Shown piece after piece: positions 1,935-32,748 of a stretch of 36,637 bases of DNA. The notes under the pieces are model-generated. The model made no database searches. It saw only the letters and a program-made list of their open reading frames with translations, and had not been told where the DNA came from. A program made the translations under genes and the position numbers. Each line of letters starts with the position of its first letter. Within the stretch, counting starts at the first letter, position 1. Source of the stretch: a virus. Taxonomy: Duplodnaviria; Heunggongvirae; Uroviricota; Caudoviricetes. The stretch lies in IMG/VR virus record IMGVR_UViG_2778261178_000002; one strand, written 5' to 3'.

Positions 1935-3098
1935 TCACTCATCATCTTCTGTTTCGTACTCCACATCAGAAAGCCTGACCTCAAGCTCTAAGGACGTCGT
2001 GAAGCCGCTATTATTCAGAAAATGTGTCACCTTAGTGATTGTCCAGTCCTGCTCGTCTATGACGCGCTTAAAGCCTGACACTCTGACCGGTGTTTCCGTG
2101 TAAATATCAGCACGACCAGTGGCAAGGCTGATGGAGAACTCCGCAACGCCCCGTTGCAGTTTATCCCACTTCGCCTGAGCGGCGCGCATGGCCTGCGCTT
2201 TCGTGGCATATACCGTGGTCAGGGCAAAAACGTTGTCAGCTTCACCGGCCATGTATTCACCTTCGCGCGCTTCCGGTACTTTTGGCGCTTTCTTCTGCGT
2301 GACTGGTTTCGCTTTCGGGTGCTCCAGTGCGCGCAGGTGTTTCTCTTTCTTTTTGCGTTTCAGTTTTACCTTCTGCTTTTGCGGCTTCGGGTCTTTGGTG
2401 TGTAACCACTTTGCCGTTACGCCGGTATAGGCTCCACGGTCAGCAATCGCAAAATGATGGCGGTCGCCGTCGCTGCGGGTTATGGTGACCTGCGGGATTT
2501 TTTTACCGCTGGCCGTCACCCCCTGCCCCGCTTTGAGAAACAACAGTTTTCCCATTTTTACCGACACCTCACCGCCGTTGCGTTCTGCAAGACGGGTCAG
2601 GAATTTCGCATCAGACTCCTGCGACTGGTCGATGTGCGGGATTTTAATTCCGGCCAGTGACGGAGCGACACTGGCTTCCAGCCTGTTACGGGAGGCTATC
2701 GCCTCAACAATCGCACCGAGCGTGGTGTCATGCCAGGAGCCTTCACGGCGGGAATTGAGCGTCCCGCGGAAATCTGCACTCCGGGCGCGGATGGTGACCA
2801 CATCCGGCGCGCCCCGGTGTTCAACCTCATCAACGGTGAATTTCCCTTTGCATACCAGGGCAAAACCTTTCCAGCCGATATACACCGTCAGGACAGCGCC
2901 ACGAACCGGCAACCCGACCTGCCCGTCGGCATCGTTCAGTTCAATATCAAGCTGGTCAGCCTCAAAGCCCCGGTTATCCGTCAGGGTCATGCTCATCAGA
3001 CGGTCACTGATATTGCCGGTAATATCCCTGCTGTCGAGCATCAGCATGTAATCCGGCGTCAGCGTACTGCCTGCATCAAATGTCAGTGCATCCAGCAT
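1935..3098 (-). CDS. D: Tail protein gpD (late gene D)
   Basis: 387 aa, same length and position as P2 gpD; overlaps U stop by 1 nt. Confidence 0.8.
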   Translation of the reverse strand: MLDALTFDAGSTLTPDYMLMLDSRDITGNISDRLMSMTLTDNRGFEADQLDIELNDADGQVGLPVRGAVLTVYIGWKGFALVCKGKFTVDEVEHRGAPDVVTIRARSADFRGTLNSRREGSWHDTTLGAIVEAIASRNRLEASVAPSLAGIKIPHIDQSQESDAKFLTRLAERNGGEVSVKMGKLLFLKAGQGVTASGKKIPQVTITRSDGDRHHFAIADRGAYTGVTAKWLHTKDPKPQKQKVKLKRKKKEKHLRALEHPKAKPVTQKKAPKVPEAREGEYMAGEADNVFALTTVYATKAQAMRAAQAKWDKLQRGVAEFSISLATGRADIYTETPVRVSGFKRVIDEQDWTITKVTHFLNNSGFTTSLELEVRLSDVEYETEDDE

Positions 3099-3577
3099 TA
3101 TCCCGCCCCCGTCATACCCGTGAATCTGGTCGCCATACTGCCAGCCTTACCGATGAGCGATTCCGCCTGTTTACCGATATCGCCATAAAGCGCGGCCAGT
3201 GATTCATCAACACGGGTGAGCGACAGCGTAAAATCAATTTTTCGGGGTGTGCCGTCTGCAAAGAAAATACTCCCTGTTTCACTCACCCTGCTGATGACAT
3301 ACATGCCGTAAATCATGCCGGTGCCATCCAGCAACGGCCACGCCCGGCCTTCCTCTGCCATCAGCCTGAGCGTGGTCATCGTCAGCTTTCCGCCGGTCAG
3401 TTCAGGATAAAGAACACCGGCAAGCGTGATGTTTTCATCGCCAACACCGAGAAACTGGTAGGCGTCCCGTTTACCGATACGGGAATTTGACGGCCAGCGA
3501 TAATCTGATTCACGCTGCATGGTCTGGTGTGGCAGCGTCTGGCGCATAAAAACAAACATACCTAACGCGAGCATCAT
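3098..3577 (-). CDS. U: Tail protein gpU
   Basis: 159 aa, position between T and D as in P2. Confidence 0.8.
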   Translation of the reverse strand: MMLALGMFVFMRQTLPHQTMQRESDYRWPSNSRIGKRDAYQFLGVGDENITLAGVLYPELTGGKLTMTTLRLMAEEGRAWPLLDGTGMIYGMYVISRVSETGSIFFADGTPRKIDFTLSLTRVDESLAALYGDIGKQAESLIGKAGSMATRFTGMTGAG

Positions 3578-6039: not shown

Positions 6040-6459
6040 TCGTGTTTCCGCTTCGCCGGAGCGCCTTTTCGCGCCATGTGATGAGTTCGGTCAGGCTCAT
6101 GGGATACAGTTCTGATGGCGGCCAGTGAAATATCACTGCCACATCCGCCATCAGGTCATCGACCGAGAGATTTTTCGGGAACGTTACTGCACCGAGTTCG
6201 GCGACAAAAAACCGACCACCTTACCGGCCAGCGCCACAAGGTCAGGCAGTTCCAGTGCGGCGACTTCCTGCTCGGTCAGCATCGGTGCAGTCATGCGCGG
6301 CAGCACCTTAATCAGTGCATCGACTTCGGAGTTCGCGACCGCAGCCAGACTGACACCGCGCAGCGTCCCGGCATTGGGTTTCATCAGCGTGACCTGTTTG
6401 ATAACCTGCTCACCACGTTTGACCGGATTTTCCAGGGTAATCACATTTTCTTTGTTCAT
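6032..6459 (-). CDS. E': Tail assembly chaperone E+E' (programmed -1 frameshift product, predicted 142 aa)
   Basis: Slippery heptamer TTTTTTG (minus strand, plus coordinates 6205..6211) near the end of E; by manual codon walk the -1 frame stays open to a TAA at 6032..6034, overlapping the T start. Confidence 0.55.
6184..6459 (-). CDS. E: Tail assembly chaperone gpE
   Basis: 91 aa, immediately downstream of FII; contains the slippery site for the E' frameshift. Confidence 0.8.
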   Translation of the reverse strand: MNKENVITLENPVKRGEQVIKQVTLMKPNAGTLRGVSLAAVANSEVDALIKVLPRMTAPMLTEQEVAALELPDLVALAGKVVGFLSPNSVQ

Positions 6460-6516
6460 GGTTTTCTCACTTCTGAATCGGGGGTTAACCGGTCAGCCTG
6501 GCTGACCGGATGAAAA

Positions 6517-7035
6517 TCACAGGCCGATATTGCGGCGGTGTTGCTCCAGCCGGTCGACGCCGTTCACCTTCTCAATCATGTTGATGGTGTCGATTTCGAC
6601 CAGCTCCTTACCGTCCATCGTCAGCCGGAAATAGGTGCAGACCACGGAGATTTTCGACTCGGTGTCTTCTCCCTGTTTGCCCTCGCCGGTGTCGATTTCT
6701 TTCTGACGGCCACGCATGACCACCTCGACGGCCACCGTTTCGCCGGTATCGTCGCGCTGGTAAGAGCCTGCAAAACGAATCGGTACGGCATCCACACCGG
6801 TTGCGGCGTAAAGCTCCCAGATAACCGAATCCGGGAAGCCCCCGAGCGACCACTCCATTGACAGCGCATCGTCATCAAGGCCGAGGTCTACCGGTGCGCT
6901 GCCGTTCATCCCCGCACCGCGATAGTTTTCGAGCTTACGGGTCAGTTTTGGCAGCGTGACGGACTTTGCAACGCCCTGATAGCTGTAGCCGTTCAGAAAG
7001 ACGTTCATTAACTTGAGTTTGCGCGGCATTGCCAT
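6517..7035 (-). CDS. FII: Tail tube protein gpFII
   Basis: 172 aa, position and length as in P2. Confidence 0.85.
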   Translation of the reverse strand: MAMPRKLKLMNVFLNGYSYQGVAKSVTLPKLTRKLENYRGAGMNGSAPVDLGLDDDALSMEWSLGGFPDSVIWELYAATGVDAVPIRFAGSYQRDDTGETVAVEVVMRGRQKEIDTGEGKQGEDTESKISVVCTYFRLTMDGKELVEIDTINMIEKVNGVDRLEQHRRNIGL

Positions 7036-7047
7036 CGGTCGGGCTCC

Positions 7048-8238
7048 TTAATTGCTGTTAACCGAAGTGACCAGATTTGCCAGGTATTTATCGGTAATAC
7101 GCTGGCGCAGGGTCAGGTTTTCGAGAGGAGGCACCGGTGTATAGTCGTAGTCGATATACAGTTTTCCGGCCTTGAGGGTTTCCGCATCGTTGGATTCTTC
7201 GCTGAACCAGCAGGTCGCATCCACGATATAGCCGTTTGTTTTCAGCTCTCGGAATTTGGCATTGATGCCGTCAACGATGTCGCGAATCAGCGTTGCGGTG
7301 ATGGGCTTGTCCACCGCCCACATGTGCGCCTCAGCCATCGTGTCGGCCAGTACCTGCGCGGTGCGGGTGTAGTTTTCAAAGAGGAACAGCGGGTCATCAG
7401 AGCAGGTACGGTTACCCCAGAAGCGGAAACCGTCACGGCGAATCAGTGTTGTGACGCCTGACTCGTTAAGCAGGTCAGCATCGGTGCCGGACTCCTGCAA
7501 ATCCCAGAATACAGATGCGCTGATGCCGGTAACACCGTTCACCCCGACATTGGACAGCGTTTTATGCCAGCCCTGCTCCTGGTCGATTTTAGCGCGCAGA
7601 CCCAGCGCACGGGCGGTGGCATACGCGGTGGTGGTGGTACTGGTGACCGTATCCCATGCGAGGAAATCCGGCCAGATGACCATCAGCTCACGCTGGCTGA
7701 AATTCTGGCGGTAGGCTTTCACCTCGGAAATGGTTTTACAGCCCCATGCGCTGATATACCCGAAAGCGCGCAGCTTCTGACAGACTGATGCCAGTGCAAC
7801 AGCCACCTCTTTGGTATCCTGTCCCGGCACGCCGAGAATACGCGGTTTAACACCGGTTACCGACTCCGCCGCCAGCAGGGCTTTCAGTCCGGTGTACTGA
7901 CCGTTTTCGTCGGTGGTGCCGATGATATTGGAAACGGTCTGCGCAAGTTTCGTTTCTTCGTCGTCGCCGGTGCCGTCTTCCACGCGCACAACAACGGTGA
8001 CCGGTTTTGACTGGTCAGCGATGGCCTGTAACGACGCCGCCAGCGTGCCTTTTTTACCGGCCTTTGCAATTGCGCTCTGCACATTGGTAATCAGCACCGG
8101 TTTATTGAGGGGGAAGGTTTCCGCATCCGCATCGCTGGCCGTGCAGACCATGCCGACAATGGCAGTGGATACGGTGGAAATGACGCGGGTGCCGTCGTTA
8201 ATCTCCAGCACCTGCACGCCGTGATGATAGTCACTCAT
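7048..8238 (-). CDS. FI: Contractile tail sheath protein gpFI
   Basis: 396 aa, position and length as in P2. Confidence 0.85.
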   Translation of the reverse strand: MSDYHHGVQVLEINDGTRVISTVSTAIVGMVCTASDADAETFPLNKPVLITNVQSAIAKAGKKGTLAASLQAIADQSKPVTVVVRVEDGTGDDEETKLAQTVSNIIGTTDENGQYTGLKALLAAESVTGVKPRILGVPGQDTKEVAVALASVCQKLRAFGYISAWGCKTISEVKAYRQNFSQRELMVIWPDFLAWDTVTSTTTTAYATARALGLRAKIDQEQGWHKTLSNVGVNGVTGISASVFWDLQESGTDADLLNESGVTTLIRRDGFRFWGNRTCSDDPLFLFENYTRTAQVLADTMAEAHMWAVDKPITATLIRDIVDGINAKFRELKTNGYIVDATCWFSEESNDAETLKAGKLYIDYDYTPVPPLENLTLRQRITDKYLANLVTSVNSN

Positions 8239-8333
8239 CCGTTTAACTCCGTGGTTAATGGGTGCAACTATTTTCTGTTGTGCAGAGCATGAGACGCTAT
8301 TTGACCTGGCTGGTCAGTGGATGAAACAACAGA

Positions 8334-8360
8334 TAAAGAAAAGGCGGGCAATTCGCCCGC
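8334..8360 (-). terminator. Rho-independent terminator downstream of cargo operon 1, upstream of the FI late promoter region
   Basis: GGCGGGC / GCCCGCC stem with AATTC loop, followed on the minus strand by a T-rich tract (TTTTCTTT). Confidence 0.55.
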
Positions 8361-8722
8361 CTGTCCTGATTTGTACTCACTCATTTTCCGCCTGACAATT
8401 TACATAGCCCAAAAGTTATCAAATCTGACAGTCTGCTTTGAGCGAAAAGCGGAAGTTCACCATTGACTCCAAGGGACGTATTTAAAGATCTTTTCAATAT
8501 TTTTGAATATATATCGAGCGTGTTTTTAATTTGAATAACCTTAATGAAAGTATAACAAAAAAATTAAAAGTAGTAACGTCAGTAAAACATTTCAAATATG
8601 ATTTAAAAGTGTTTATGAGTGCCGAAAATGGAGATCTATCCACAATGGATATGCATTGCATATCCATAATTCTTGAGTACAAACACCATCATGAGGTGGA
8701 CTCTTGCAGGCACAAAATCAAT

Positions 8723-9838
8723 TCAAATAAAATTAAATAACTCATGTTCATCTATAGCTTTTGATCCAATTAAATTCGCAGCTTCTATGTCATTATCATT
8801 TGTTTCCGAAATAAGGAAAAATGAATCAATATTATTTTGTAAAATGATTTTTTTATGCTTCTTAAGCCATTGTAATTTACTTGTAGTGAACAACACTCGG
8901 CGCGGTAGAAGAATACGACTAAAAACTGAGGGGAGATACTCACTTCTATTAAATTGAACAAAAGGATCACCAAAAGAAAGGATAGTTAGATGATTAAATT
9001 TACCGTGCAAATTCAATTTTTCAGCTGATTTAGCTATGCCACTTGGCAAAAAAACACCTGTCTTGATACCTTTACGTAAAGCAGTAACAGCCATCATTTT
9101 ATCGAAAGCAGTTCCACCAAAGAGCAATGAATACCCTTTCTTAACAGAAATATCAATAGTATCAAGGACAGCTTGCTTTTCTATATCGCTAGGTGATGTA
9201 CTCGAAATTATAGAAAGATCAAAGTCAGTAAATAGCTGCCCAGTATAATAAAGATTTTTGCTTGATAAAGTTGAAAGTTTTACCGGAAAGCTTTTATCAT
9301 CACGTCGAATTTCGGACACATTTAGATCCTTTAGCGATGGGTAGCTATGGTTTGGTGTGACTTTTTCTCGTTTATTATTTTTTGATGCTTGCGGGCTAAA
9401 AACCAAAATCTCATTTTTATTGTTAGATAGAGAATCTTGTATCATTTTTTTTACAATTTCCCAATCAAGACCGCCGTGGCCACAACCTAAAGCTGGTAGA
9501 GTGATAATTTTACCGTTCTTATGCTCCAAATAATTCGAGAGCCAAACCAGACCTTTTTCTATATATTCATACTTGGATTTATTTTTCCAATGATCCTTAG
9601 TAGGAAAATTTATGATCTCTATATCATTACCATACGCATCAGCATTTTTCCAAACTGCTGGTTTACCTGGGGATATGTCTCCTTTTTTACATAGCAATAC
9701 GTACTCATCATACATTTCGGGAAACTTGTTTTTAAAAGCAAAAGCTACCCCTGCCCCCATTACACCAACACAATTAACTGTATTGATTCTAATGTCAGCA
9801 GCATAATCAAAAAAATCACCATCAACGAATCTAATCAT
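8723..9838 (-). CDS. Macrodomain (ADP-ribose-binding/hydrolase, DarG-like N-terminus) fused to a C-terminal DprA/SMF-like domain; putative antitoxin/sensor partner
   Basis: N-terminus carries macrodomain motifs (NTVNCVGVMGAGVAFAF; ITLPALGCGHGG); C-terminus has a DprA-like glycine-rich stretch (LLFGGTAFDKMMAVTALRKG...FLPSGIAK); ATGA overlap with the upstream gene; AT-rich. Confidence 0.55.
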   Translation of the reverse strand: MIRFVDGDFFDYAADIRINTVNCVGVMGAGVAFAFKNKFPEMYDEYVLLCKKGDISPGKPAVWKNADAYGNDIEIINFPTKDHWKNKSKYEYIEKGLVWLSNYLEHKNGKIITLPALGCGHGGLDWEIVKKMIQDSLSNNKNEILVFSPQASKNNKREKVTPNHSYPSLKDLNVSEIRRDDKSFPVKLSTLSSKNLYYTGQLFTDFDLSIISSTSPSDIEKQAVLDTIDISVKKGYSLLFGGTAFDKMMAVTALRKGIKTGVFLPSGIAKSAEKLNLHGKFNHLTILSFGDPFVQFNRSEYLPSVFSRILLPRRVLFTTSKLQWLKKHKKIILQNNIDSFFLISETNDNDIEAANLIGSKAIDEHELFNFI

Positions 9839-11169
9839 AAATTCTCCTCAAGATAAGTATACATCCTTGCTCTTAATTCTTCAATTTTATCAATCCCATC
9901 TTTTACCCATGCTGTATTAATGGAATTCATATCGCATTTAGCAATTAGAATTAACATATCTACATCAGATTTTATCTTTATTATTTTTTGCATTTGCTCT
10001 TCGTTTCTTTCATGGGCTATTATATCCCCAACAAGATCATCGTAAACTACGAGTGTCACAATTTGCCTTATTTCCCTATTGGATAAATCACCTATTTCTT
10101 CACACAAAATTCTTTTAAGCATAGGTAACGATTTAATAGGATGAGTATCATCTACTTTTTGTACTCCATCTTTCCATCTAGATTTAGGTCCTTTGCCAAT
10201 ATCATGTAAATATGCAGCGAGCGTTACAACAAGTCGTTCTCTTTCCGATAAGTCGTGGAATGCAGACTCCGTATTAAGTAAGCTGGCAACTCTTCTGCTA
10301 TGTGCCCCAACATCCTCTCGGTGAATAGGATTATCTGTTTCAAGGCCATCAATATCAGAAAGTTCTTTTATACACCCAAAGTTATTGCTAATCGCTTCTA
10401 ACACATCTGCGATATTTTTAAATCTAGGGTTTAAAGGTTTATTTTGTTTTATATCACTTATATATTTTTTAGTCTTCGCAAGGAGAATCTTAGGTCCTGT
10501 AACAATATTCACCCGGCCTACCACATTTAAATCATGAAAGTAATGATGATCAAATGATCTAGAATCACAACGAACATCAAAATTATTAAACCCATATTTT
10601 TTCAATAGCTGTGCAACATGCGTTTTCACGCAAAGATTCCAAACAACAATAAATGAAAAATTATTGAAGGGAATTTCATCATGAATAAGCAACTCTGCCA
10701 TTTTTTGCTGTTTTACTCCTTCGGTCTTTGGGATCCACACTCTACTGTCAATTGCATCCCAATTTAGCTTATTTAAATCATCAGCATTAGAGTAAAATGT
10801 TGGTGGCGTTAAAGTATTTGCAGAAGAATTTGAAAAAACTACTGATTTATCTTCTATCGCCTCTATTGGTATCGCAAGATATATAATTCCTTCTTGATCT
10901 ACGTTTTTTTTCTTAATAACATTAAGTAACATGGGAGATCTTTTAGTGAAGTAAAAAGGCACATAATCATGGACCACTCCACCTGGACCACAAGTGACCC
11001 TCATTTCACTACGACGGTGTTGTATTTCATTATTTGCTATATCTTTATGAATAATGCCTCTATTTGATTTTAAATTTGTACTAAGTAATCCATTTTTTAT
11101 AATTCCCTCAAGATTATCAATGTATGTAAAATGATAAACAAACCTATCTGAGTATTGTGGTTTTATCAT
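9835..11169 (-). CDS. DarT-like ADP-ribosyltransferase domain (DUF4433-type) fused to a C-terminal HD phosphohydrolase domain; putative toxin/effector
   Basis: N-terminus YHFTYIDNL (His13), HRRSE, HDYVPFYF, and a candidate catalytic Glu in MAELLIHD (about residue 159), resembling DarT; C-terminus has HD-domain motifs (H in GAHSRRV, HD in YLHDIGKG, D in VYDDLVGD); strong SD AAGGAG before the ATG. Confidence 0.55.
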   Translation of the reverse strand: MIKPQYSDRFVYHFTYIDNLEGIIKNGLLSTNLKSNRGIIHKDIANNEIQHRRSEMRVTCGPGGVVHDYVPFYFTKRSPMLLNVIKKKNVDQEGIIYLAIPIEAIEDKSVVFSNSSANTLTPPTFYSNADDLNKLNWDAIDSRVWIPKTEGVKQQKMAELLIHDEIPFNNFSFIVVWNLCVKTHVAQLLKKYGFNNFDVRCDSRSFDHHYFHDLNVVGRVNIVTGPKILLAKTKKYISDIKQNKPLNPRFKNIADVLEAISNNFGCIKELSDIDGLETDNPIHREDVGAHSRRVASLLNTESAFHDLSERERLVVTLAAYLHDIGKGPKSRWKDGVQKVDDTHPIKSLPMLKRILCEEIGDLSNREIRQIVTLVVYDDLVGDIIAHERNEEQMQKIIKIKSDVDMLILIAKCDMNSINTAWVKDGIDKIEELRARMYTYLEENL

Positions 11170-11581
11170 TTACTCTCTCCTTAAAATTTAAAGTTTTATC
11201 TGTATAGATTTAGTCTCAACTGAATTAATAGTCTTTATTAATCATAATATTTAAATAATTAGGCTGCTTTTTTAATTGAACTATAAAGAATAAGCAACCC
11301 ACTCAATAAGATACACTTTATTTATTCTGGTGCAATATTAAAAACGCATAATAAGTGTCATTTTCATTGCTCGTGAATGCCATTACTCTTAAATCGTGAT
11401 CCGGTTCAAAATTTAGAGGCTGGAGCTGGTTGTGTTTAATGAAAAATTACAATTTTAATACGTCCGCTGTACACCCTTAGCTGCCGTTAGCTTAACGTCC
11501 GCAACAGGCACAGAGCGGACTGTCAGATTAGGCTTTACTCTGTACCATAGATATGTAAGCTCACACCAGAGTTCATACAAC

Positions 11582-12109
11582 TTATTGCGGCATTTCCGGC
11601 CATTCAGGATTTGCAGGATCCACACGACTGACCAGAACGCTGTAGCGTTCCCAAGCCTCCAGCCGTGTGCGCTCCTCCTCTGTTGCCATGTTCAGTCTGA
11701 CCGCGCGCTCCAGCGGCAAAATCACGGATTCAGCATCTGCAAGAAGTCTGGCTTTCCGGTTTTCTGCCTGCTGCTGCAATTCCTCTGCCGTATAAATGCG
11801 TTTAATCACTTTTCCGTCCTTAAACATCCAGCCCCCTGAAATGTCCGCCCGTCGGTTAGCAGTAATATCCGCCACTTCAACAACACTTAATCCATCCGGT
11901 CTGATAGCTGTCACATCCTTTTCCACATAGCGGATGATATTATCCTTGTCGTACGCTATTTTTATCGTGTCATCAGCAAAATACTTTTGTTCTTCGTACC
12001 AGTTCTTACCATCTTCTGAAAAAAACCAGACAACATCAAAATCCCTTGTCAATTGATATTGTTCAACCGTTTTTGGATTACCTGCCGTTATATTTATCAA
12101 ATGCTGCAT
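11582..12109 (-). CDS. G: Tail fibre assembly chaperone gpG
   Basis: 175 aa, immediately downstream of H. Confidence 0.8.
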
Positions 12110-23297: not shown

Positions 23298-25070
23298 ATG
23301 ACCATCACCACAGACACCACTCTTTTACACGACCCGCGTCGTCAGGCGGCGCTGCTGTACTGGCAGGGGTTTTCCGTGCCGCAGATTGCCGCCATGTTGC
23401 AGATGAAACGCCCGACGGTGCAGAGCTGGAAACAGCGCGACGGCTGGGACAGCGTTGCCCCCATCAGCCGTGTCGAAATGAGTCTGGAAGCGCGGCTGAC
23501 CCAGCTCATCATCAAACCGCAGAAAACCGGCGGTGACTTCAAGGAAATTGACCTGCTCGGACGCCAGATTGAACGACTGGCACGGGTCAACCGTTACAGT
23601 CAGACCGGCAACGAGGCAGACCTTAATCCGAACGTCGCTAACCGCAACAAAGGCGGGCGTCGCAAACCGAAAAAGAATTTTTTCAGTGACGAGGCCATCG
23701 AAAAGCTGGAGCAGATTTTCTTTGAGCAGTCTTTCGAATATCAGTTGCACTGGTATCGCGCCGGGCTTGAGCACCGCATCCGCGATATCCTGAAATCCCG
23801 CCAGATTGGCGCGACGTTTTATTTTTCCCGCGAGGCGCTGCTGCGCGCCCTGAAAACCGGTCATAACCAGATTTTTCTGTCGGCCAGTAAAACGCAGGCG
23901 TATGTGTTCCGTGAATACATCATCGCCTTTGCCCGGCTGGTTGACGTTGACCTGACCGGTGACCCGATTGTCCTGGGCAATAACGGCGCAAAACTGATTT
24001 TTCTCGGCACCAACTCCAACACCGCACAGAGCCATAACGGCGACCTGTACGTCGACGAGATTTTCTGGATCCCGAATTTTCAGGTACTGCGTAAGGTGGC
24101 ATCAGGTATGGCCTCACAGAGTCACCTGCGCTCGACCTATTTCTCCACCCCGTCCACGCTGGCGCACGACGCCTATCCGTTCTGGTCCGGTGAACTGTTT
24201 AACCGGGGACGCGCCAGCGCCGCCGAACGCGTGGAAATCGACGTCAGTCATAACGCCCTTGCCGGAGGTCTTCTCTGTGCGGACGGCCAGTGGCGGCAGA
24301 TTGTCACCATTGAGGACGCCCTGAAAGGTGGCTGCACATTGTTCGACATTGAGCAGCTTAAACGCGAAAACAGCGCCGACGATTTTAAAAACCTGTTCAT
24401 GTGTGAATTTGTTGACGACAAGGCGTCGGTATTCCCGTTCGAGGAGCTGCAACGCTGCATGGTCGACACGCTGGAAGAATGGGAAGACTATGCGCCGTTT
24501 GCCGCAAATCCGTTCGGCTCCCGACCGGTATGGATTGGTTACGACCCGTCACACCGTGGCGACAGCGCCGGATGCGTGGTACTGGCACCGCCGGTGGTGG
24601 CCGGTGGCAAATTCAGAATACTTGAGCGTCACCAGTGGAAAGGCATGGACTTTGCCACTCAGGCTGAATCCATCCGCAAACTCACCGAAAAATACAACGT
24701 CGAATACATCGGAATTGATGCCACCGGCCTCGGTGTCGGCGTGTTCCAGCTCGTGCGCTCGTTCTATCCCGCCGCGCGCGATATCCGCTACACGCCGGAA
24801 ATGAAAACCGCAATGGTGCTCAAGGCCAAAGACGTTATCCGCCGTGGCTGTCTGGAATATGACGTCAGCGCCACCGACATCACCAGCTCCTTTATGGCTA
24901 TCCGCAAGACCATGACCAGCAGCGGACGCAGCGCCACCTATGAGGCCAGCCGCAGCGAGGAAGCCAGCCACGCCGACCTCGCCTGGGCGACCATGCACGC
25001 TCTGTTAAATGAGCCACTCACCGCCGGTATCAGCACCCCGCTGACATCCACCATTCTGGAGTTTTACTGA
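23298..25070 (+). CDS. P: Terminase large (ATPase) subunit gpP
   Basis: 590-aa product from ATG at 23298 (MTITTDTTLLHDP...) preceded by a GAGG SD; divergent from O as in P2. Confidence 0.85.
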   Translation: MTITTDTTLLHDPRRQAALLYWQGFSVPQIAAMLQMKRPTVQSWKQRDGWDSVAPISRVEMSLEARLTQLIIKPQKTGGDFKEIDLLGRQIERLARVNRYSQTGNEADLNPNVANRNKGGRRKPKKNFFSDEAIEKLEQIFFEQSFEYQLHWYRAGLEHRIRDILKSRQIGATFYFSREALLRALKTGHNQIFLSASKTQAYVFREYIIAFARLVDVDLTGDPIVLGNNGAKLIFLGTNSNTAQSHNGDLYVDEIFWIPNFQVLRKVASGMASQSHLRSTYFSTPSTLAHDAYPFWSGELFNRGRASAAERVEIDVSHNALAGGLLCADGQWRQIVTIEDALKGGCTLFDIEQLKRENSADDFKNLFMCEFVDDKASVFPFEELQRCMVDTLEEWEDYAPFAANPFGSRPVWIGYDPSHRGDSAGCVVLAPPVVAGGKFRILERHQWKGMDFATQAESIRKLTEKYNVEYIGIDATGLGVGVFQLVRSFYPAARDIRYTPEMKTAMVLKAKDVIRRGCLEYDVSATDITSSFMAIRKTMTSSGRSATYEASRSEEASHADLAWATMHALLNEPLTAGISTPLTSTILEFY

Positions 25071-26104
25071 TGAGCAAGAAAAAAGGGAAAACACCGCAAC
25101 CTGCGGCAAAAACAATGACCGCCAGCGCCCCGAAAATGGAGGCATTCACCTTTGGCGAGCCGGTGCCGGTACTCGACCGCCGTGACATTCTGGATTACGT
25201 CGAATGCATCAGTAACGGCAGATGGTATGAGCCGCCGGTCAGCTTTACCGGTCTGGCAAAAAGCCTGCGTGCTGCCGTGCATCACAGCTCACCGATTTAC
25301 GTCAAACGTAATATTCTGGCTTCAACGTTTATCCCGCACCCGTGGCTTTCCCAGCAGGATTTCAGCCGTTTTGTGCTGGATTTTCTGGTGTTCGGTAATG
25401 CGTTTCTGGAAAAGCGTTACAGCACCACCGGTAAGGTCATCAGACTGGAAACCTCACCGGCCAAATATACCCGTCGTGGCGTGGAGGAGGATGTTTACTG
25501 GTGGGTGCCAACCTTCAACGAGCCGACAGCCTTCGCGCCAGGCTCCGTGTTTCACCTGCTGGAGCCGGATATTAATCAGGAGCTGTACGGCCTGCCGGAA
25601 TATCTCAGCGCCCTTAACTCTGCCTGGCTGAATGAGTCGGCCACGCTGTTCCGCCGCAAGTATTACGAAAACGGCGCACATGCCGGATACATCATGTACG
25701 TCACCGATGCCGTGCAGGATCGCAACGATATCGAAATGCTTCGCGAAAACATGGTTAAGTCGAAAGGCCGCAACAACTTTAAAAACCTGTTTCTCTATGC
25801 CCCGCAGGGGAAAGCCGACGGCATTAAAATTATCCCGCTCAGTGAAGTGGCAACGAAGGACGATTTTTTTAATATCAAAAAAGCCAGCGCCGCTGACCTG
25901 CTGGACGCGCACCGCATCCCCTTTCAGTTGATGGGAGGCAAGCCGGAGAACGTCGGGTCGCTGGGTGATATTGAGAAAGTGGCAAAGGTCTTTGTCCGCA
26001 ATGAGCTTATCCCGCTACAGGACAGGATCCGCGAGATAAACGGCTGGCTCGGTCAGGAGGTCATCCGCTTTAAAAACTACTCACTGGACACTGACAACGG
26101 CTGA
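25070..26104 (+). CDS. Q: Portal protein gpQ
   Basis: 344 aa; start overlaps the P stop; position as in P2. Confidence 0.85.
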   Translation: MSKKKGKTPQPAAKTMTASAPKMEAFTFGEPVPVLDRRDILDYVECISNGRWYEPPVSFTGLAKSLRAAVHHSSPIYVKRNILASTFIPHPWLSQQDFSRFVLDFLVFGNAFLEKRYSTTGKVIRLETSPAKYTRRGVEEDVYWWVPTFNEPTAFAPGSVFHLLEPDINQELYGLPEYLSALNSAWLNESATLFRRKYYENGAHAGYIMYVTDAVQDRNDIEMLRENMVKSKGRNNFKNLFLYAPQGKADGIKIIPLSEVATKDDFFNIKKASAADLLDAHRIPFQLMGGKPENVGSLGDIEKVAKVFVRNELIPLQDRIREINGWLGQEVIRFKNYSLDTDNG

Positions 26105-26131: not shown

Positions 26132-26273
26132 ACGCCCCCGTCATCACGCCCTCACACGCTCATCACCGCACAAAAAATCCCGCAGACACACCAACGCCCA
26201 GCAGGCCAAGTAAACGCCTTCACGACGCGCTCAGACGCTGAAAAAATAAAATCAGCACCACCGCCAGCGCGCA

Positions 26274-26292
26274 GTGCTTTCCCCGCCTCGCC
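26274..26292. other. cos site (19-nt cohesive-end sequence, reverse complement of GGCGAGGCGGGGAAAGCAC)
   Basis: GTGCTTTCCCCGCCTCGCC matches the P2 cohesive-end sequence as I recall it; located just beyond Q as expected. Confidence 0.6.
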
Positions 26293-26421: not shown

Positions 26422-28392
26422 TTAAAGGTCATCAATTAAACCTAAAGGCAAACCGTCCTCACCAACCGAGCTATAATGAGCGATAATATTCGAAAGTTCA
26501 CCAGTAGAAAACGAATTAGGCAAATCATTATCAACTAATATAATCTGGCACGGAACATTTTTTCTTTCTGCTTTTTGAACTGTATTCAATAGTTGTTCAT
26601 AAATATTTTGATACTTCATCGGATCTGACATTCCCTCAAGGTCATCCTCGACTGCAAGAGTTTCTTTTGAATATTTTTCCTTGGTCTGTTTCCCTAAATA
26701 TTTGCCAACCGTATCAAATATCAAAAGTAAAGGATGGTTAACATTATGATCTATTGCATAATCAAGAATAGACAAAAGATACCCAATAGAAGAAATAGTT
26801 CTCAAACCTCCGGATGTTATTTTAAAATATTCTTTTTCTCTTATAACAGGAATGTAATAGCTTTCAGAGATTTTTATCCCCGTTCTGTTTTTGATATTAA
26901 TACCCTTCAAATACTGACTAAATCTATCACCCAAACCTTGTAAAATGCCCTCCATGCTAGGTGCGTTTTTCTTTAACGCCTCCAAGCGTTCAGTTAATGC
27001 TTCAATATCTTTTCTCAGTACCTGATACTTTTCAAGCAGTTCCTCTTGCTGGTTTCTAACCTTCAAATCTTTTACTAACTGCTCCCTAACCTTCTCATTT
27101 TTTGATATCTCTTTAATATAAAAATCTCTCTGAGTCAAGAATGGTGTAATCATTGACTGGCTTTCTTCGTCAATCAATTCTCTCAACTCGTCAAGTCGTT
27201 CATCTAATTCTTTTTTATAACCTGATTCTTTTTTTAATTTAAATGACATTTCTGAGATCATGTCATTAATATTTCGTCTACGTCGACTAAGTGAATTCAA
27301 CTCTTCATTAAGATCTTTTTCTGATGAAATTTCAAATGGAAAATCAGAATCATCTATTTTAATGTGGCTATCACAGATTGGACAGGAAAATATTTCCTTA
27401 TCCAATACACCAATGCGAGAATTTGCTGTTTTAATCGCTTTAAGTTTTTCAATATCATTATCATAGTCATTTTTTAACCGCGAATATTTATCAATCTTAT
27501 CCTCAAGCGCACTAATATTTAATATGCACTCTTTGTATTTAAGCGAAATAAAATTGTGAGCATCTTTAAATTCTGTATACTGTATGGAATCCGCTTTCAT
27601 ATTTTTATCGAGAGCAGACAAACCTGCAACAAGTTCTTCTAAAACAAGATCTATCCTATTAATCTCATCATCAATTGATTCAATTGTTTCATAGTCTGTA
27701 TCGCGAAGAAATTCAGATATTATCTGATACTTCCTATTTAATTCCGTTACTAAACTACTTTTTGCAGATATTTCACCTTGGAGTCTGGCGATGCTTTCAT
27801 CCAACACATTGAACATGTATTTAAAAACTTCTTTCGTAAATGCGTAGCGGGACCAATCACCCAATCGCAAGAAAGATTTACTACCAATATCATCCTGACT
27901 TACATAAACAAATTTATATATATTTCTAAAACTTAACCTGCGCATCTGTGAATGCGCTTTAGAAGGAGACACCTTAATTTCAATCTTTGGAAAATTAAGA
28001 CTATCAAGTAAAAACTCCGAAAAAACACCATCAACATTTGATAATGGGCTATAATTAGGAGCGTATTTTTTCGGAAAATGTTTATGTAAATCATCAAACT
28101 TACAACGATAAACTTCTATTGCTTTTTTATGATCATAGATATCTCTTACGATTGTGAATACAGTATCATTGATCACTACTTCAAGAGCAGCATAGTTTAC
28201 TGATGTTTTTATTTCATCTGCTAAATCTATAGAGCTAGCACCTAAAAGATAATTAATAAACTCCAGAATGCTTGACTTACCTGTGTCAGAGTCTCCGTAG
28301 ATAACATTGAGACCTTTATAAAAAGTAGTGACGTAGTTTTTACGAACACCAACAAGAATCAAACTATTGATATTGAGATATGATTTCATCAT
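26422..28392 (-). CDS. SMC/Rad50-like ABC ATPase with long coiled coil (Lamassu LmuB-like / ABC-3C ATPase)
   Basis: N-terminal Walker A GDSDTGKSS; central coiled-coil-like region with a CxxC (FSCPICDSH) hook-like motif; C-terminal ABC signature TSGGLRT and Walker B LLLIFDT; SD AAGGAGAA; ATGA overlap with the upstream gene; AT-rich. Confidence 0.6.
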   Translation of the reverse strand: MMKSYLNINSLILVGVRKNYVTTFYKGLNVIYGDSDTGKSSILEFINYLLGASSIDLADEIKTSVNYAALEVVINDTVFTIVRDIYDHKKAIEVYRCKFDDLHKHFPKKYAPNYSPLSNVDGVFSEFLLDSLNFPKIEIKVSPSKAHSQMRRLSFRNIYKFVYVSQDDIGSKSFLRLGDWSRYAFTKEVFKYMFNVLDESIARLQGEISAKSSLVTELNRKYQIISEFLRDTDYETIESIDDEINRIDLVLEELVAGLSALDKNMKADSIQYTEFKDAHNFISLKYKECILNISALEDKIDKYSRLKNDYDNDIEKLKAIKTANSRIGVLDKEIFSCPICDSHIKIDDSDFPFEISSEKDLNEELNSLSRRRRNINDMISEMSFKLKKESGYKKELDERLDELRELIDEESQSMITPFLTQRDFYIKEISKNEKVREQLVKDLKVRNQQEELLEKYQVLRKDIEALTERLEALKKNAPSMEGILQGLGDRFSQYLKGINIKNRTGIKISESYYIPVIREKEYFKITSGGLRTISSIGYLLSILDYAIDHNVNHPLLLIFDTVGKYLGKQTKEKYSKETLAVEDDLEGMSDPMKYQNIYEQLLNTVQKAERKNVPCQIILVDNDLPNSFSTGELSNIIAHYSSVGEDGLPLGLIDDL

Positions 28393-28901
28393 TTCTCCTT
28401 GAAAACTTGATTTATAACAGAGTTTAACTTAGAGGTAGGCAATGCTTGTAGCGGTAACAATGCTTCGGATAGTCGTTTTATTTCTTTAAAATATCCATCA
28501 GTCAATGAGCTAGCAAATTCCTTACCTTTTTCAGATAAAAATAATTTAACACTCTCATTATTTTTTTTCTCAGCTGAGAGCAATCCCCGCAATGACATAA
28601 TTTTTATAAGATATTTCACTTTGGAATTGTCGAATAAGATATCTACATTTGATGAAAAACTCTTTATTGTATAAGTTAACTGGGACTCGACACAAGCAGG
28701 CTTTTTCCCCGAAATTGTAAGAGCATAATCAATTTTTGATGGGTTTTTTATCAGATACATAAAAATTTGTATTTTATTAATATCTAATGATAACACTCCT
28801 TTTTTGCTATGAGATAATATAGATATAGCAATGGCAAGCATAGCAAAATTCAAGCTATACTCTTCATCAAGAGGAATATACGGCAAGTTATTTTTCTTCA
28901 T
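28389..28901 (-). CDS. Small middle-component protein (LmuC-like), function unknown
   Basis: 170-aa ORF translationally coupled on both sides (14-nt overlap upstream, ATGA overlap downstream); SD GAGGT; no recognisable catalytic motif. Confidence 0.4.
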   Translation of the reverse strand: MKKNNLPYIPLDEEYSLNFAMLAIAISILSHSKKGVLSLDINKIQIFMYLIKNPSKIDYALTISGKKPACVESQLTYTIKSFSSNVDILFDNSKVKYLIKIMSLRGLLSAEKKNNESVKLFLSEKGKEFASSLTDGYFKEIKRLSEALLPLQALPTSKLNSVINQVFKEK

Positions 28902-30111
28902 GATTACCTCGCCGTAATTGCTCCAAAGTTTCTACGCTGGTTTCAGATGACCAGACAATATCTCTATCATTTTTGTTAGCCAGTTGATGCAACATTCCTT
29001 TCTTATGTATCGTTTCTAAACTTTTTATAAGAGAATCTAACGACGACTTATCCTCTTGGGCTATTCGTCTATGAACAGCAGCAATAAATTTATCTGGGGA
29101 AATTGAATTCGCGATATATTGCTCATACTCTTCCTGGTAAATCTCCCTTATTTTAGAATACAAATGACCAAGTAGTTTCCTATCGTAATCACTCGTAAAA
29201 ATATTTCTCGCAAGCTCAGCATTATAATAATATTCCTTTGCATGCATAGCGATATCCTGATGTATATCTGCGACAATCATTTTTAAGACGAAATACTCAT
29301 TATCATATTGTTTCTCATCAGAAAAACGCTCAACACATATCTTCTTGGGTGCTTCTAAATTTATCTGCTGAATAAATTGCTTTACCGCAACAAACACTGT
29401 AGACGAGCTGTTTTCGGGCTTGCAAATTGAGCTATGCCCTTCATTAACTGCAATTGAGTTATTTCGTTCACTATCCATCGGTAATGCGCTTTTTTTATCA
29501 ACTATAGTGTCATGAGAACCATAAACATATCTAGTGATAGGAAGTTTTTTGCTACAATTTATCCAGCGCCTATTCAATGTATCAGTCGCTTCACTTAACA
29601 ATCCAAGATCTACTAACTGAGCATTTGAAGATACCATTGAAGTTATATTCGCCAATTTAGCACCAAAGTGAGGGACTGCTAACGAAATGAATCCAATTAT
29701 ATTAGATTGTTCCTCATGCTCAACTTTTTTTAGAATTAGATTTTTTGATATTAACCCCCCCATACTATGGGCAATTATTATAATTCGAGAGTAATCACTT
29801 AGCGTTACCCTAATCTCAGTATACAATAACTCAGCTATTTCATCAGTTGGTAAATTTCTCTCTAACTTATTTTTCTTAGAGAAAATACGAGCCAATAATC
29901 CTGACGTTTTAGCATACGTTTGTGTAAATTTTGTGAAATAGTTGAAACATGCAATATCAAATACATTGCCAATGTCTTCATCTTCTGCTAATAGTTTTGG
30001 AAATGAAGTTTCTTTATTAAAGTTCCATGTTTCCAAACCACCATTTAATCCATGTACAAATAGTATCAGGCTATCTTTTTTCTCGTGGCTTATCCATTCA
30101 ACCATGCTCAT
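28888..30111 (-). CDS. Alpha/beta-hydrolase (lipase/esterase-like Ser-Asp-His) effector with C-terminal helical domain (LmuA-like)
   Basis: N-terminal LILFVHGLNGG, nucleophile elbow AHSMGG, candidate Asp (GSHDTIVD) and His (NEGHSS); C-terminal about 170 aa with no catalytic motif; first gene of a three-gene operon. Confidence 0.55.
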   Translation of the reverse strand: MSMVEWISHEKKDSLILFVHGLNGGLETWNFNKETSFPKLLAEDEDIGNVFDIACFNYFTKFTQTYAKTSGLLARIFSKKNKLERNLPTDEIAELLYTEIRVTLSDYSRIIIIAHSMGGLISKNLILKKVEHEEQSNIIGFISLAVPHFGAKLANITSMVSSNAQLVDLGLLSEATDTLNRRWINCSKKLPITRYVYGSHDTIVDKKSALPMDSERNNSIAVNEGHSSICKPENSSSTVFVAVKQFIQQINLEAPKKICVERFSDEKQYDNEYFVLKMIVADIHQDIAMHAKEYYYNAELARNIFTSDYDRKLLGHLYSKIREIYQEEYEQYIANSISPDKFIAAVHRRIAQEDKSSLDSLIKSLETIHKKGMLHQLANKNDRDIVWSSETSVETLEQLRRGNHEEK

Positions 30112-30200
30112 ATGCTTTTCTGCCGTGTATAAAAATTAAACCATAACAAACAATTCCTCAACAATAACATATTGTTACCCCGTTTGACCGTTCTTTTCAA

Positions 30201-32483
30201 CTACCACTCACGCTGTCTGTCAAAAAAGTCGATATCGTTATCAAATTTAAAACGCTTATGCCCAAAATCCAAAACAGCTCCGCGAGCGAGAGCTTCAAGC
30301 TCCCAATAACTAGCCTGAATGTCACTTTGTGCAAGAAGAACCTTAATTTTCGGGATAGTCTTTCTCTCCTGTCTTGTCAACCGGGCGGATGGGGCAGGAA
30401 AGTAGCTTCGACCATTGAAAGGGGTAAAGCTCTGCTGTGAACGATTACTGCATTTCAGTTCATTACTCAATAAGTCTCTAAGTACCTTCATAATGCCTGG
30501 CTCGGTCCAACTTAGAATCCCTTCATCTATTAAATTTAACACCGCTGCAGCATGCTCAGTCGGTGTGGGTGCCGGTAACGAAGTATCACCACCGTTGAGC
30601 TTTCCACAGTTATTGACAGGACTCCGAGGCGCGGCGATGCCGCTTTTTAAAGTCAAAGGCTCAACGACCGGAACTTTCGGCACAATGCGCCAGTCCGTCG
30701 TTCTGGTGATATGAATATGACGCGCGCCGAGATGCGGCGCGTAAATGCCGACCACTCTCTCGACCTCTTCCTCGTACTCGTTAACGTCATCCGACGGGCT
30801 ACGGGCGACCCTGACAGTCTGACAATCGCGCGGGACATTTGCCCCACCCTGCGCGCTGATATACAGCGCAAAATCGCCACTGTCTGCGGCGGCGCGTGCA
30901 GCCTCCACGCGTTCGTCAAATTCATCAGCAATGCTGACGCCGCGAGGCAATTTACGTAGCTCACGGTAAGCTCCCATTGTCGGCAGGCCAACCGTTTTAA
31001 ATTGCGGGATGCGCCACGTTGACGCCCATGCGGTAACAGCCGCGGCAGTATCTTTCAGCGGTCTGCCGGTATCGTTATCGAGCTGACCATCCAGTGCATA
31101 GCCGTCGATATTTTTTGAAATGTATTTCGCGATATATCCCGCAGCACCGCCCCGGTTAAGGTGTTTTGCCTGAAAACGGTTTCGCGCGGCTCCTCTTTCG
31201 TCGCCATCCTCTTTGAGCGCATAGCGACGCATGATTTCGATAATCTGGTTACGCTGGCGTGGATTACAAAAAAGCATCATATGCCAGTGCGGCGTTCCGT
31301 CGTGGTGTGGCTCGACGACTCGCAAACCGTAGACCTGTAAATCATTATCCTTGAATGCCGTGCGCATCAGGCTCCAGATACGGCAGAGATAACGCTGCGC
31401 ATCCTTTGGATTAAATGCCTCATCATTCCAGCCGTGATTAAGCTGGACGGTTTTATTTTCGCCTTTTCCAACCTGACGTGTCGGGTGATACTTTGACGGC
31501 GCGGTAAGCGTGATAAACATCCCCACATCACCCTCTGAGGCGGCGTAACGCTCAATACCGGCAATGGTGTTCATCAGCTCCATCCGGCGAATTTCAGGAT
31601 TAGAAATACTGCCCATCACCTTACTGATAAGGTCGATGCGTTCGCCGGTTTCCCTGTTTTCAAGGTCACACGATTTAAGAAACTCCAGATTTGCCTGGCG
31701 GCGCGCACGCACATCACGAATGGCATGTTTACTGGCATAAGGAGAACGGTCTTTATTGACCTCCCCGACAGCAATCAGTAACGCCTCATGCCAGCGCATA
31801 CGCTGGCCTTTAAGCTGATGAGTCCACCACTCATCGTTAAACAGGCGGGCAATGGCAGAATATGCCTGCCTCGTGGTCATCTGCCCTTTACGGTATTTTC
31901 TCCAGTAAAGCGGAGAAATATTGAAAGCACGTGCAGCGCCAGCAACATGACCATACAGGTGAGCCTGCGCCTCATCCGTAAACAGCGATTCTTTTTCGCC
32001 ATGCGCATCCACCCAGGCATCGCAGAGTTCCTCATACATCATGAAAAGCTGCGATGAGATTCGGGCGGCAAACTTTTTCAGCTCCTTGTCATTCATCCCC
32101 GGCAGGCGCGCATACTGGTCGCGCTCTGCCAGAAACAGCAACGACGCGTCGGTGTTCATTTCATGGCGCTGATTCACACGCTCAATGCGCGGCCATAAAC
32201 GACGCTGAAAAGTGGATGTGAGGAAATAAAACCCGTGCACCGGGCTTTTATTGCGCCGGATGTAGTCATAGCGTGAAGTAAACAGCGAGCGCAAAAAGTA
32301 AGGCAGGCGGTTAATCGTGGATAAAACACCTTGCACCTGACGCATCTCGTCACGTGTAAGGGGTCTTTCGCGCCCGACAGCCTCGCGTGGCGCGTTCCAT
32401 GCATAAGCACCGGTAAACGCCTTACCGGTGCCTGCGGCAAATGCTGACGGAGGGACAAAACGCCCGGAGGCTTTAACGGCCAT
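30201..32483 (-). CDS. A: Replication initiation protein gpA (rolling-circle nicking endonuclease)
   Basis: About 760 aa from ATG at 32481..32483 (MAVKASGRF...); the ORF track's 774-aa version uses an upstream TTG; position as in P2. Confidence 0.8.
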   Translation of the reverse strand: MAVKASGRFVPPSAFAAGTGKAFTGAYAWNAPREAVGRERPLTRDEMRQVQGVLSTINRLPYFLRSLFTSRYDYIRRNKSPVHGFYFLTSTFQRRLWPRIERVNQRHEMNTDASLLFLAERDQYARLPGMNDKELKKFAARISSQLFMMYEELCDAWVDAHGEKESLFTDEAQAHLYGHVAGAARAFNISPLYWRKYRKGQMTTRQAYSAIARLFNDEWWTHQLKGQRMRWHEALLIAVGEVNKDRSPYASKHAIRDVRARRQANLEFLKSCDLENRETGERIDLISKVMGSISNPEIRRMELMNTIAGIERYAASEGDVGMFITLTAPSKYHPTRQVGKGENKTVQLNHGWNDEAFNPKDAQRYLCRIWSLMRTAFKDNDLQVYGLRVVEPHHDGTPHWHMMLFCNPRQRNQIIEIMRRYALKEDGDERGAARNRFQAKHLNRGGAAGYIAKYISKNIDGYALDGQLDNDTGRPLKDTAAAVTAWASTWRIPQFKTVGLPTMGAYRELRKLPRGVSIADEFDERVEAARAAADSGDFALYISAQGGANVPRDCQTVRVARSPSDDVNEYEEEVERVVGIYAPHLGARHIHITRTTDWRIVPKVPVVEPLTLKSGIAAPRSPVNNCGKLNGGDTSLPAPTPTEHAAAVLNLIDEGILSWTEPGIMKVLRDLLSNELKCSNRSQQSFTPFNGRSYFPAPSARLTRQERKTIPKIKVLLAQSDIQASYWELEALARGAVLDFGHKRFKFDNDIDFFDRQREW

Positions 32484-32748
32484 ATGAGCCAAAAGCCTCT
32501 GAACAACGCCTGCTGAGTTGCTCAACCTGCGCGTTTAAATCAGCAAAAGACTTTGCGCTTCCGGTCAGAATATCGTGATGCATCAGGCCGGAAACGAGCT
32601 GGCTTAATTTCGGATAATAACCAACCACCGCCAGCCATTCCTGACCGGCGTTTTTACCGCTTTCCGCTCTCTTTTTCTCGTGGAGAATAAACTGAAAGCT
32701 GTCACTGGTAACGACATAACGTTCGCCAATTTCAATACGAATACTCAT
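32473..32748 (-). CDS. Hypothetical early protein (P2 orf83-like position)
   Basis: 91-aa ORF in the early operon upstream of A; no recognisable motif. Confidence 0.5.
   Translation of the reverse strand: MSIRIEIGERYVVTSDSFQFILHEKKRAESGKNAGQEWLAVVGYYPKLSQLVSGLMHHDILTGSAKSFADLNAQVEQLSRRCSEAFGSYGR

Follow-up and report, generated by a model that had tools for sequence, protein, structure and literature searches.

Lamassu systems, a family of ABC three-component (ABC-3C) defense systems, have been characterized in most depth where the effector LmuA is a Cap4-type nuclease, as in Vibrio cholerae DdmABC and Salmonella enterica LmuACB (9NY5, 9NYG, 9HQU, 9HQX and 9UXH). In Cap4-type Lamassu, the ATPase LmuB acts as the sensor, detecting DNA ends or, in vivo, the replication origins of phages, and deletion of the gene for the small middle component, lmuC, abolishes Lamassu defense (Millman et al. 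2022). Lamassu systems with lipase effectors have also been described; their LmuA proteins were assigned to the C-terminal domain families CTD8 and CTD9 (Li 2025), and one of them, the Escherichia coli system Ec-Lipase, protects against lambda-vir (Haudiquet et al. 2025, PNAS, PMC12663957). In Ec-Lipase, the LmuB K42A and LmuA H215A substitutions each abolish defense, but only H215A relieves the toxicity of overexpression (Haudiquet 2025, PMC12663957). The slot of P2 that is flanked by portal gene Q/cos on one side and replication gene A on the other has in turn been defined as a defense hotspot, in which anti-phage systems are enriched (Rousset et al. 2022, Cell Host Microbe, PMC9122126). In this report, we analyze a stretch of 36,637 nucleotides (nt) from the caudoviricete record IMGVR_UViG_2778261178_000002 of IMG/VR (the whole stretch is called the window below), which carries in this slot an operon, lmuA-lmuC-lmuB, that is almost certainly a Lamassu-lipase system. 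The fuller reading, in which a type II ('short', zinc-hook) Lamassu/ABC-3C system of the lipase-effector subtype is cargo in the hotspot of a P2-like E. coli prophage and works by the mechanism proposed below, we regard as likely.

The three genes are all on the minus strand, in the order lmuA, lmuC, lmuB, and occupy positions 26422-30111 by their open reading frame (ORF) coordinates (Table 1); lmuA and lmuC overlap by 14 nt and lmuC and lmuB by 4 nt (ATGA), overlaps that are compatible with translational coupling. An earlier note, made from the letters of this DNA, had described three AT-rich genes of 407, 170 and 656 amino acids (aa) in the Lamassu/ABC-3C arrangement, and family searches bear this description out, the ORFs agreeing exactly and each protein matching its PADLOC model end to end: LmuA matches PDLC03851 (5.9e-109, residues 3-406), LmuC matches PDLC03869 (4.1e-52) and LmuB matches PDLC03862 (6.2e-235, full length). 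Pfam likewise found CTD8 (1.5e-35), DUF676 (2.1e-9), PGAP1 (2.4e-7) and LCAT in LmuA, ABC-3C middle component 4 (MC4; 2.2e-26) in LmuC and AAA_23/SMC_N in LmuB. With E-values of 1e-26 to 1e-235 for the three proteins, these family matches are far beyond chance. All sequence-level traits of a type II or short Lamassu of the lipase subtype are present; among them, a small middle-component gene sits between the effector and ATPase genes, and LmuA is an N-terminal effector fused to an ABC-3C C-terminal domain of the CTD1-12 class. RefSeq, through PGAP, labels the proteins 'ABC-three component system protein', 'ABC-three component system middle component 4' and 'AAA family ATPase', and each of them has a full-length family in PHROGs (PHROG 1846 for LmuA), labeled 'unknown function'. 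The operon is thus an already known system: databases and three papers cover it, as do PADLOC models and PGAP names. A single-sequence phmmer search of LmuC against the PDB gave no match.

We then examined the predicted effector. The Pfam hydrolase match covers approximately residues 10-208 of LmuA, with DUF676, PGAP1 and Abhydrolase_1 above their cut-offs and the lysophospholipase L2 family matched weakly. The Ser-Asp-His order, the nucleophile elbow and the oxyanion HG of alpha/beta hydrolases are all present, and His20-Gly21, Ser116, Asp201 and His226 are invariant across 41 LmuA homologs of 42-92% identity; the catalytic triad, whose conservation in homologs the earlier note had made a condition of its reading, therefore persists down to 42% identity. 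In an AlphaFold 2 (AF2) model, in which the core has a predicted local distance difference test score (pLDDT) of about 90, the catalytic residues follow strands 14-19, 109-115, 192-198 and 219-222, which are the canonical alpha/beta-hydrolase positions, and on this model the fold is certainly that of an alpha/beta hydrolase. Residues 149-170, between strand 138-144 and helix 170-184, are of low confidence and fall at the usual position of a lid. When the model was compared with the PDB by Foldseek, monoacylglycerol lipases, type II thioesterases and carboxylesterases came out on top with similar scores, and dehalogenases and NDRG proteins were also found. The helices of CTD8 have pLDDT values below 50, and because of this the fold search is uninformative on CTD8, which is presumed, by analogy with the solved Cap4-type Lamassu complexes, to serve as docking and oligomerization domain.

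The same kind of hydrolase domain was found outside Lamassu, as the N-terminus of a 1,333-aa NACHT/STAND protein (WP_170924507) on a Bacillus cereus plasmid (31% identity, E 4e-24), where it keeps the HG, HSMGG, D and EGHxSICK motifs. The two effector domains are homologous and share these motifs, but in WP_170924507 the sensor, a NACHT NTPase, is part of one polypeptide with the hydrolase, whereas that of the window system would be an SMC-like complex. Retention of the catalytic motifs in the NACHT/STAND protein argues that the hydrolase is a swappable immune effector module; as far as sequence can tell, it is a modular domain reused by a protein resembling nucleotide-binding leucine-rich-repeat (NLR) receptors.

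LmuB has the features of a Lamassu ATPase, namely a head split by a short coiled coil, a Walker A motif, a signature and a deviant Walker B motif. These motifs, the CxxC hook and the AHSMGG elbow of LmuA had been named in the earlier note, and every one was found in the translations. The deviant Walker B motif, in which Asp560 is followed by Thr instead of Glu, is of a kind noted in LmuB by Li 2025, and short Lamassu systems have diversified Walker B motifs (Haudiquet 2025, PMC12663957). Across 30 LmuB homologs, Walker A Gx4GKS with Lys39, Gln166, Cys337-Pro338-x-Cys340, the SGG at 527-529 and Asp560 are invariant. In the AF2 model of LmuB (mean pLDDT 85.9), the head is split, the coiled-coil arms span approximately residues 199-326 and 358-498, and the CPIC hook falls in the loop that joins the two arms; a zinc hook, that is, a CxxC at the coiled-coil apex and a trait of some clades including the lipase clade H, is accordingly present. 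In a Foldseek search of the PDB with this model, seven of the eight best matches were Lamassu LmuB chains (9uxh, 9hqx, 9hqu, 9nyg and 9ux7; E 1e-20 to 7e-14), and Rad50, SMC, JetC and MukB ranked behind them, in agreement with the claim of the earlier note that this SMC/Rad50-like ATPase is related to LmuB. Single-sequence phmmer gave no match for LmuB in the PDB, and a profile of the 30 homologs was required to reach S. enterica LmuB (9hqu_A, 9.7e-11); in that comparison Walker A, hook and Walker B were aligned, CPIC pairing with the CPMC of 9hqu_A.

Two further observations concern the start and the naming of LmuB. The gene begins with a tandem ATG ATG (28387-28392), either of which is used by RefSeq, giving 656 aa in O157:H7 and 655 aa in E. 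coli B; most homologs align from the second Met, which puts the Walker A Lys at 38. NCBI names many LmuB homologs 'exonuclease SbcC' or 'Rad50', as in an E. coli cluster that has 1,268 members, and, considering the operon partners, this looks like over-annotation.

The genomic setting is equally well defined. Between Q and gene A lies an exact match to the P2-type cos 19-mer GGCGAGGCGGGGAAAGCAC, for which 0 occurrences are expected by chance and which we take to be the P2/P4 cohesive end. The sequence next to cos of P4 in Table S2 of Rousset 2022 (PMC9122126) agrees with this identification. With cos, Q and A identified, the operon lies where the earlier note had placed it, in the slot in which P2 carries tin and old. 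Its GC content of 32.8% (0.328) differs from the 53.5% (0.535) of portal gene Q and the 52.3% (0.523) of gene A. The operon thus has both marks of cargo in the cos-proximal hotspot of P2, a location between Q/cos and A and a foreign base composition. From the stop codon of gene A to the start of lmuA there are 89 nt, which hold a weak sigma-70-like site (Table 1). A consensus scan found promoter-like sites in the region in numbers not above shuffled expectation, and this site is a candidate only.

The operon recurs in E. coli genomes and is maintained by selection. At 95% identity or more it occurs in 96 of 5,426 complete E. coli genomes, as a single copy and on the chromosome in every carrier; many O157:H7 strains and the E. 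coli B lineage are among these genomes. Relative to the E. coli B allele, the ratio of nonsynonymous to synonymous substitution rates (dN/dS) is about 0.09 for lmuA, 0.17 for lmuC and 0.11 for lmuB; the three genes are under purifying selection. The same order of lipase-CTD8, MC4 and an ATPase of about 660 aa is also found in Methylomonas sp. LW13 (LmuA 44% identity) and in a conjugative or mobile-element context in Pseudomonas aeruginosa (LmuA 50% identity), and the contexts of these two operons are unrelated, so that the three genes are inherited together. The system was found in prophages and chromosomes and, distantly, on plasmids, and neither megablast nor tblastn with LmuA gave a match among sequenced phages (INPHARED set). 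In E. coli B REL606 and ATCC 11303, the portal gene next to the operon is annotated as a truncated pseudogene (locus positions 1-307), and because of this truncation the E. coli B prophage is defective; the Lamassu operon is retained in it, intact in ATCC 11303.

Comparison with described systems places the operon more precisely. The closest, 'Hydrolase + SMC' of Rousset 2022 (PMC9122126), is this very operon at 97-99% nucleotide identity and sits in the identical hotspot, though it was not named Lamassu there. The P2-hotspot entry WP_000063136, described as 'DUF676/PGAP1 + hypothetical + hypothetical' in Table S5A of that paper, is the LmuA annotated under the operon match in O157:H7 TW14359. 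Thus, the subtype with a lipase effector and CTD8 is not new: it stands in the Lamassu literature, and the operon itself was listed and cloned in Rousset 2022 (PMC9122126). Ec-Lipase (short Lamassu, clade H; PMC12663957) shares with the window system its host species, three genes, a lipase LmuA with a catalytic His, and a short LmuB with CxxC hook and Walker A Lys, but its K42 and H215 stand against K39 and H226 in the window proteins. Among the homologs listed for the CTD8 lineage, none has Lys42, and His215 is absent from all those whose His motif was found; the Lys is mostly at 38-40 and the His mostly at 221-228. Because K42 and H215 match no member listed for the lineage, we treat Ec-Lipase as related but distinct, possibly of the CTD9 lineage. 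The Cap4-nuclease systems resemble the window system in LmuB fold and motifs, a small LmuC, an LmuA built of effector and C-terminal docking domain, and an identical gene order; they differ in that the window effector is a predicted Ser-Asp-His alpha/beta hydrolase with CTD8 and MC4, in an LmuB identity of only about 14-15% over the structural alignment and, for V. cholerae DdmC, in the lack of a zinc hook (PMC12663957), where the window LmuB has CPIC. The Lamassu hydrolase-protease system of B. cereus B4077 (Millman et al. 2022) also belongs to the family and has non-nuclease effectors; we considered and rejected its assignment to the same subtype, since the 'hydrolase' there has a metallo-beta-lactamase fold, unrelated to the alpha/beta hydrolase of the window, and is paired with a peptidase, and the LmuB of that system is long, at about 1,030 aa. 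Wadjet (JetABCD) was rejected as well, since JetC matched only with E 0.035, JetA, JetB and JetD are absent and the three genes are of another kind.

The published record of this operon requires a separate consideration of the REL606 allele. The REL606 operon was cloned as pFR106 and is given as 'Hydrolase + SMC' under 'additional tested systems', not validated (Rousset 2022 Table S2B, PMC9122126). In REL606 (NC_012967.1), however, lmuC carries a 2-bp TG insertion that causes a frameshift with a stop after residue 50 (locus 2590-3104, corresponding to 28389-28901 of the window), whereas lmuC of the window is intact. The 50-residue LmuC product is printed in the same Table S2B, and RefSeq splits REL606 lmuC in two, the alignment showing the TG insertion, which is absent from the other 95 of the 96 carriers, including eleven E. 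coli B relatives. In addition, the only promoter on pFR106 was the 89-nt region upstream of lmuA, with its weak sigma-70-like site. Because lmuC is frameshifted in REL606 and is needed for Lamassu defense, the REL606 null says little about the intact system, and with lmuC broken it is no evidence of inactivity for the lipase-CTD8 Lamassu of P2 prophages. Intact alleles are carried by the window, by O157:H7 strains and by ATCC 11303 of E. coli B. In the literature searched, we found no positive experiment on the CTD8/MC4 lipase lineage and no biochemical data on any Lamassu lipase.

By homology to the solved Cap4-type complexes (Haudiquet 2025, PMC12663957; Li 2025; Ming Li et al. 2025, preprint), we propose a model whereby, in the resting cell, an LmuB dimer and one LmuC would sequester monomeric LmuA through its C-terminal domain. 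The LmuB heads would sense the DNA ends or replication intermediates that an invading phage or plasmid presents; LmuA would then be set free and self-associate through CTD8, and the Ser116-Asp201-His226 hydrolase would turn active, resulting in cell death or arrest, that is, abortive infection. Li et al. 2025 extend the liberation-oligomerization model to lipase effectors, for which AlphaFold 3 (AF3) predicts dimers or larger rings and not Cap4-type tetramers (Li 2025). The motifs predicted for ATP binding, zinc-hook dimerization and serine hydrolysis are conserved and the components are intact, and we consider sequestration and release of LmuA reasonably probable by analogy. The most speculative step is the last, in which the hydrolase would cleave lipid ester bonds, probably those of inner-membrane phospholipid from the cytoplasmic face; a phospholipid substrate is what the DUF676, PGAP1 and LCAT families suggest, and we put it forward tentatively. 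The 'membrane or small-molecule hydrolysis' of the earlier note was itself an inference, the modeled fold being that of a generic alpha/beta hydrolase. We can equally do no more than raise as a possibility the complete picture for the CTD8/MC4 lipase lineage, in which an SMC-like DNA-end sensor would be coupled to an effector that destroys the inner membrane from its cytoplasmic side, LmuA would be activated as a dimer or ring, and the published null would be an artefact of the lmuC frameshift.

Several points weigh against this interpretation. The sole published test of the operon, with pFR106 and its REL606 allele, gave no validated defense, and the validated Ec-Lipase probably represents a different, sister lineage, judging from the positions of its catalytic and Walker A residues. 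Expression in the lysogen possibly depends on a candidate promoter-like site that is no better than chance. Oligomerization of LmuA through CTD8 is a prediction; CTD8 is of low confidence in the model, and the AF3 forms differ from Cap4 tetramers. Finally, the fold matches of the LmuA model, to lipases, thioesterases, esterases and dehalogenases, are generic and fix no substrate.

This last point leaves room for a variant in which the Lamassu sensor is kept but the hydrolase cuts an ester, thioester or amide that is either soluble or bound to a protein, such as acyl-acyl carrier protein or acyl-coenzyme A, a lipoprotein or a peptide bond, causing growth arrest and not lysis. Type II thioesterases, carboxylesterases and NDRG proteins score like lipases in Foldseek, no membrane-spanning segment was predicted in LmuA, LmuB or LmuC, and no lipid-binding feature has been demonstrated in them; yet the Pfam families DUF676, PGAP1 and LCAT, and weakly lysophospholipase L2, are lipid-ester hydrolases, the modeled residues 149-170 occupy the usual lid position, and the Lamassu literature names the domain a lipase (PMC12663957; Li 2025), so that we think this variant somewhat unlikely. 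Improbable, too, is an operon directed mainly against plasmids and other mobile elements, or serving as an addiction module that stabilizes the prophage. V. cholerae DdmABC, the best-studied Lamassu, does eliminate plasmids in addition to phages, no activity against phages was seen with the REL606 allele in Rousset 2022 (PMC9122126), and E. coli B keeps the operon intact in a defective prophage with a truncated portal gene; but the REL606 null is attributed to the lmuC frameshift, the related Ec-Lipase protects against lambda-vir (PMC12663957), and the slot is a hotspot enriched in anti-phage systems. The two roles can, moreover, coexist.

That the operon might instead be decaying, non-functional prophage cargo is suggested by one negative published test and one natural frameshifted allele, both from REL606, but all three window ORFs are intact, 95 of the 96 carriers lack the REL606 insertion, dN/dS is about 0.1 and every catalytic and ATPase motif is invariant, which makes decay very improbable. 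Our results refute the remaining alternative, in which the 656-aa ATPase would be a repair protein of the SbcC/Rad50 type with unrelated neighbors. It could draw on the 'exonuclease SbcC' names given by NCBI to many homologs and on weak Rad50/SMC matches in NCBIfam and PHROGs; the NCBIfam Rad50/SMC scores, however, are 16-52 bits against cut-offs of 300-1000, with RecN likewise far below, and the fold is closer to Lamassu LmuB than to Rad50. SbcCD/Rad50-Mre11 was rejected on the same grounds, since no SbcD/Mre11 gene adjoins lmuB, its partners are MC4 and a CTD8-bearing alpha/beta hydrolase, and the three genes stay linked across unrelated genomes. We therefore retain the reading of the operon as a lipase-effector Lamassu in the P2 hotspot. 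As a discovery it matters little, being an ordinary, catalogued member of a known defense family at a known hotspot; as a compact E. coli operon, it is a convenient model for questions about the substrate of a non-nuclease Lamassu effector and its activation by oligomerization.

Table 1. Features of the lmuA-lmuC-lmuB operon, its hotspot and the other loci discussed (window positions unless otherwise indicated)
Feature	Position	Strand	Remarks
lmuA	28888-30111	-	407 aa; N-terminal DUF676/PGAP1 alpha/beta hydrolase and C-terminal ABC-3C CTD8
LmuA hydrolase domain, about residues 1-255	29347-30111	-	predicted triad Ser116-Asp201-His226
LmuA oxyanion motif	His20-Gly21	-	HG
LmuA nucleophile elbow AHSMGG, residues 114-119	29755-29772	-	Ser116 codon 29764-29766
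LmuA Asp201	codon 29509-29511	-	codon checked
LmuA His226	codon 29434-29436	-	codon checked
CTD8 domain of LmuA, residues 265-389	28945-29319	-	Pfam PF20284, 1.5e-35, profile positions 1-126 of 127
lmuC	28389-28901	-	170 aa, ABC-3C middle component 4 (MC4)
lmuB	26422-28392	-	656 aa, SMC/Rad50-like ATPase
LmuB Walker A GDSDTGKS, Lys39	28273-28296	-	
LmuB hook CPIC, residues 337-340	27373-27384	-	
LmuB signature SGG, residues 527-529	26806-26814	-	
LmuB deviant Walker B LLIFDT	26710-26727	-	Asp560, then Thr instead of Glu
Portal gene Q	25070-26104	+	left flank; PHROG 68 portal protein, 2.5e-176
Terminator-like hairpin	26255-26270	-	about 150 nt downstream of lmuB; consensus scan only
cos 19-mer, P2-type	26274-26292	-	left hotspot boundary, exact match
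Weak sigma-70-like site, candidate own promoter	30171-30200	-	TTGAAA-18-AACAAT, 9 of 12
Replication gene A, rolling-circle nickase	30201-32525	-	right hotspot boundary; PHROG 91 'nicking at origin of replication', E = 0; RefSeq 'replication endonuclease'
DarTG toxin-antitoxin defense pair	8723-11169	-	genes overlap by 4 nt
453-aa ORF	1-1362	+	left window edge, outside the prophage late genes
NACHT/STAND protein with LmuA-like hydrolase, 1,333 aa	B. cereus plasmid NZ_CP115305.1, locus 3959-7960		adjoins a nucleotidyltransferase/HEPN pair

The window also contains the second cargo slot of P2, between the tail sheath gene (7048-8238) and the tail-fiber assembly gene (11582-12109), where an AT-rich island extends over approximately 8250-11580 and includes the DarTG pair (Table 1). 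DarG, of 371 aa, has a macro domain (PADLOC 6.4e-58, residues 1-164) followed by about 200 C-terminal residues that are unmatched, and DarT, of 444 aa (PADLOC 7.8e-53), carries an additional HD domain at its C-terminus (Pfam 1.6e-6, residues 288-391). With DarTG in the second slot and Lamassu in the first, both cargo slots of this prophage therefore carry defense systems.

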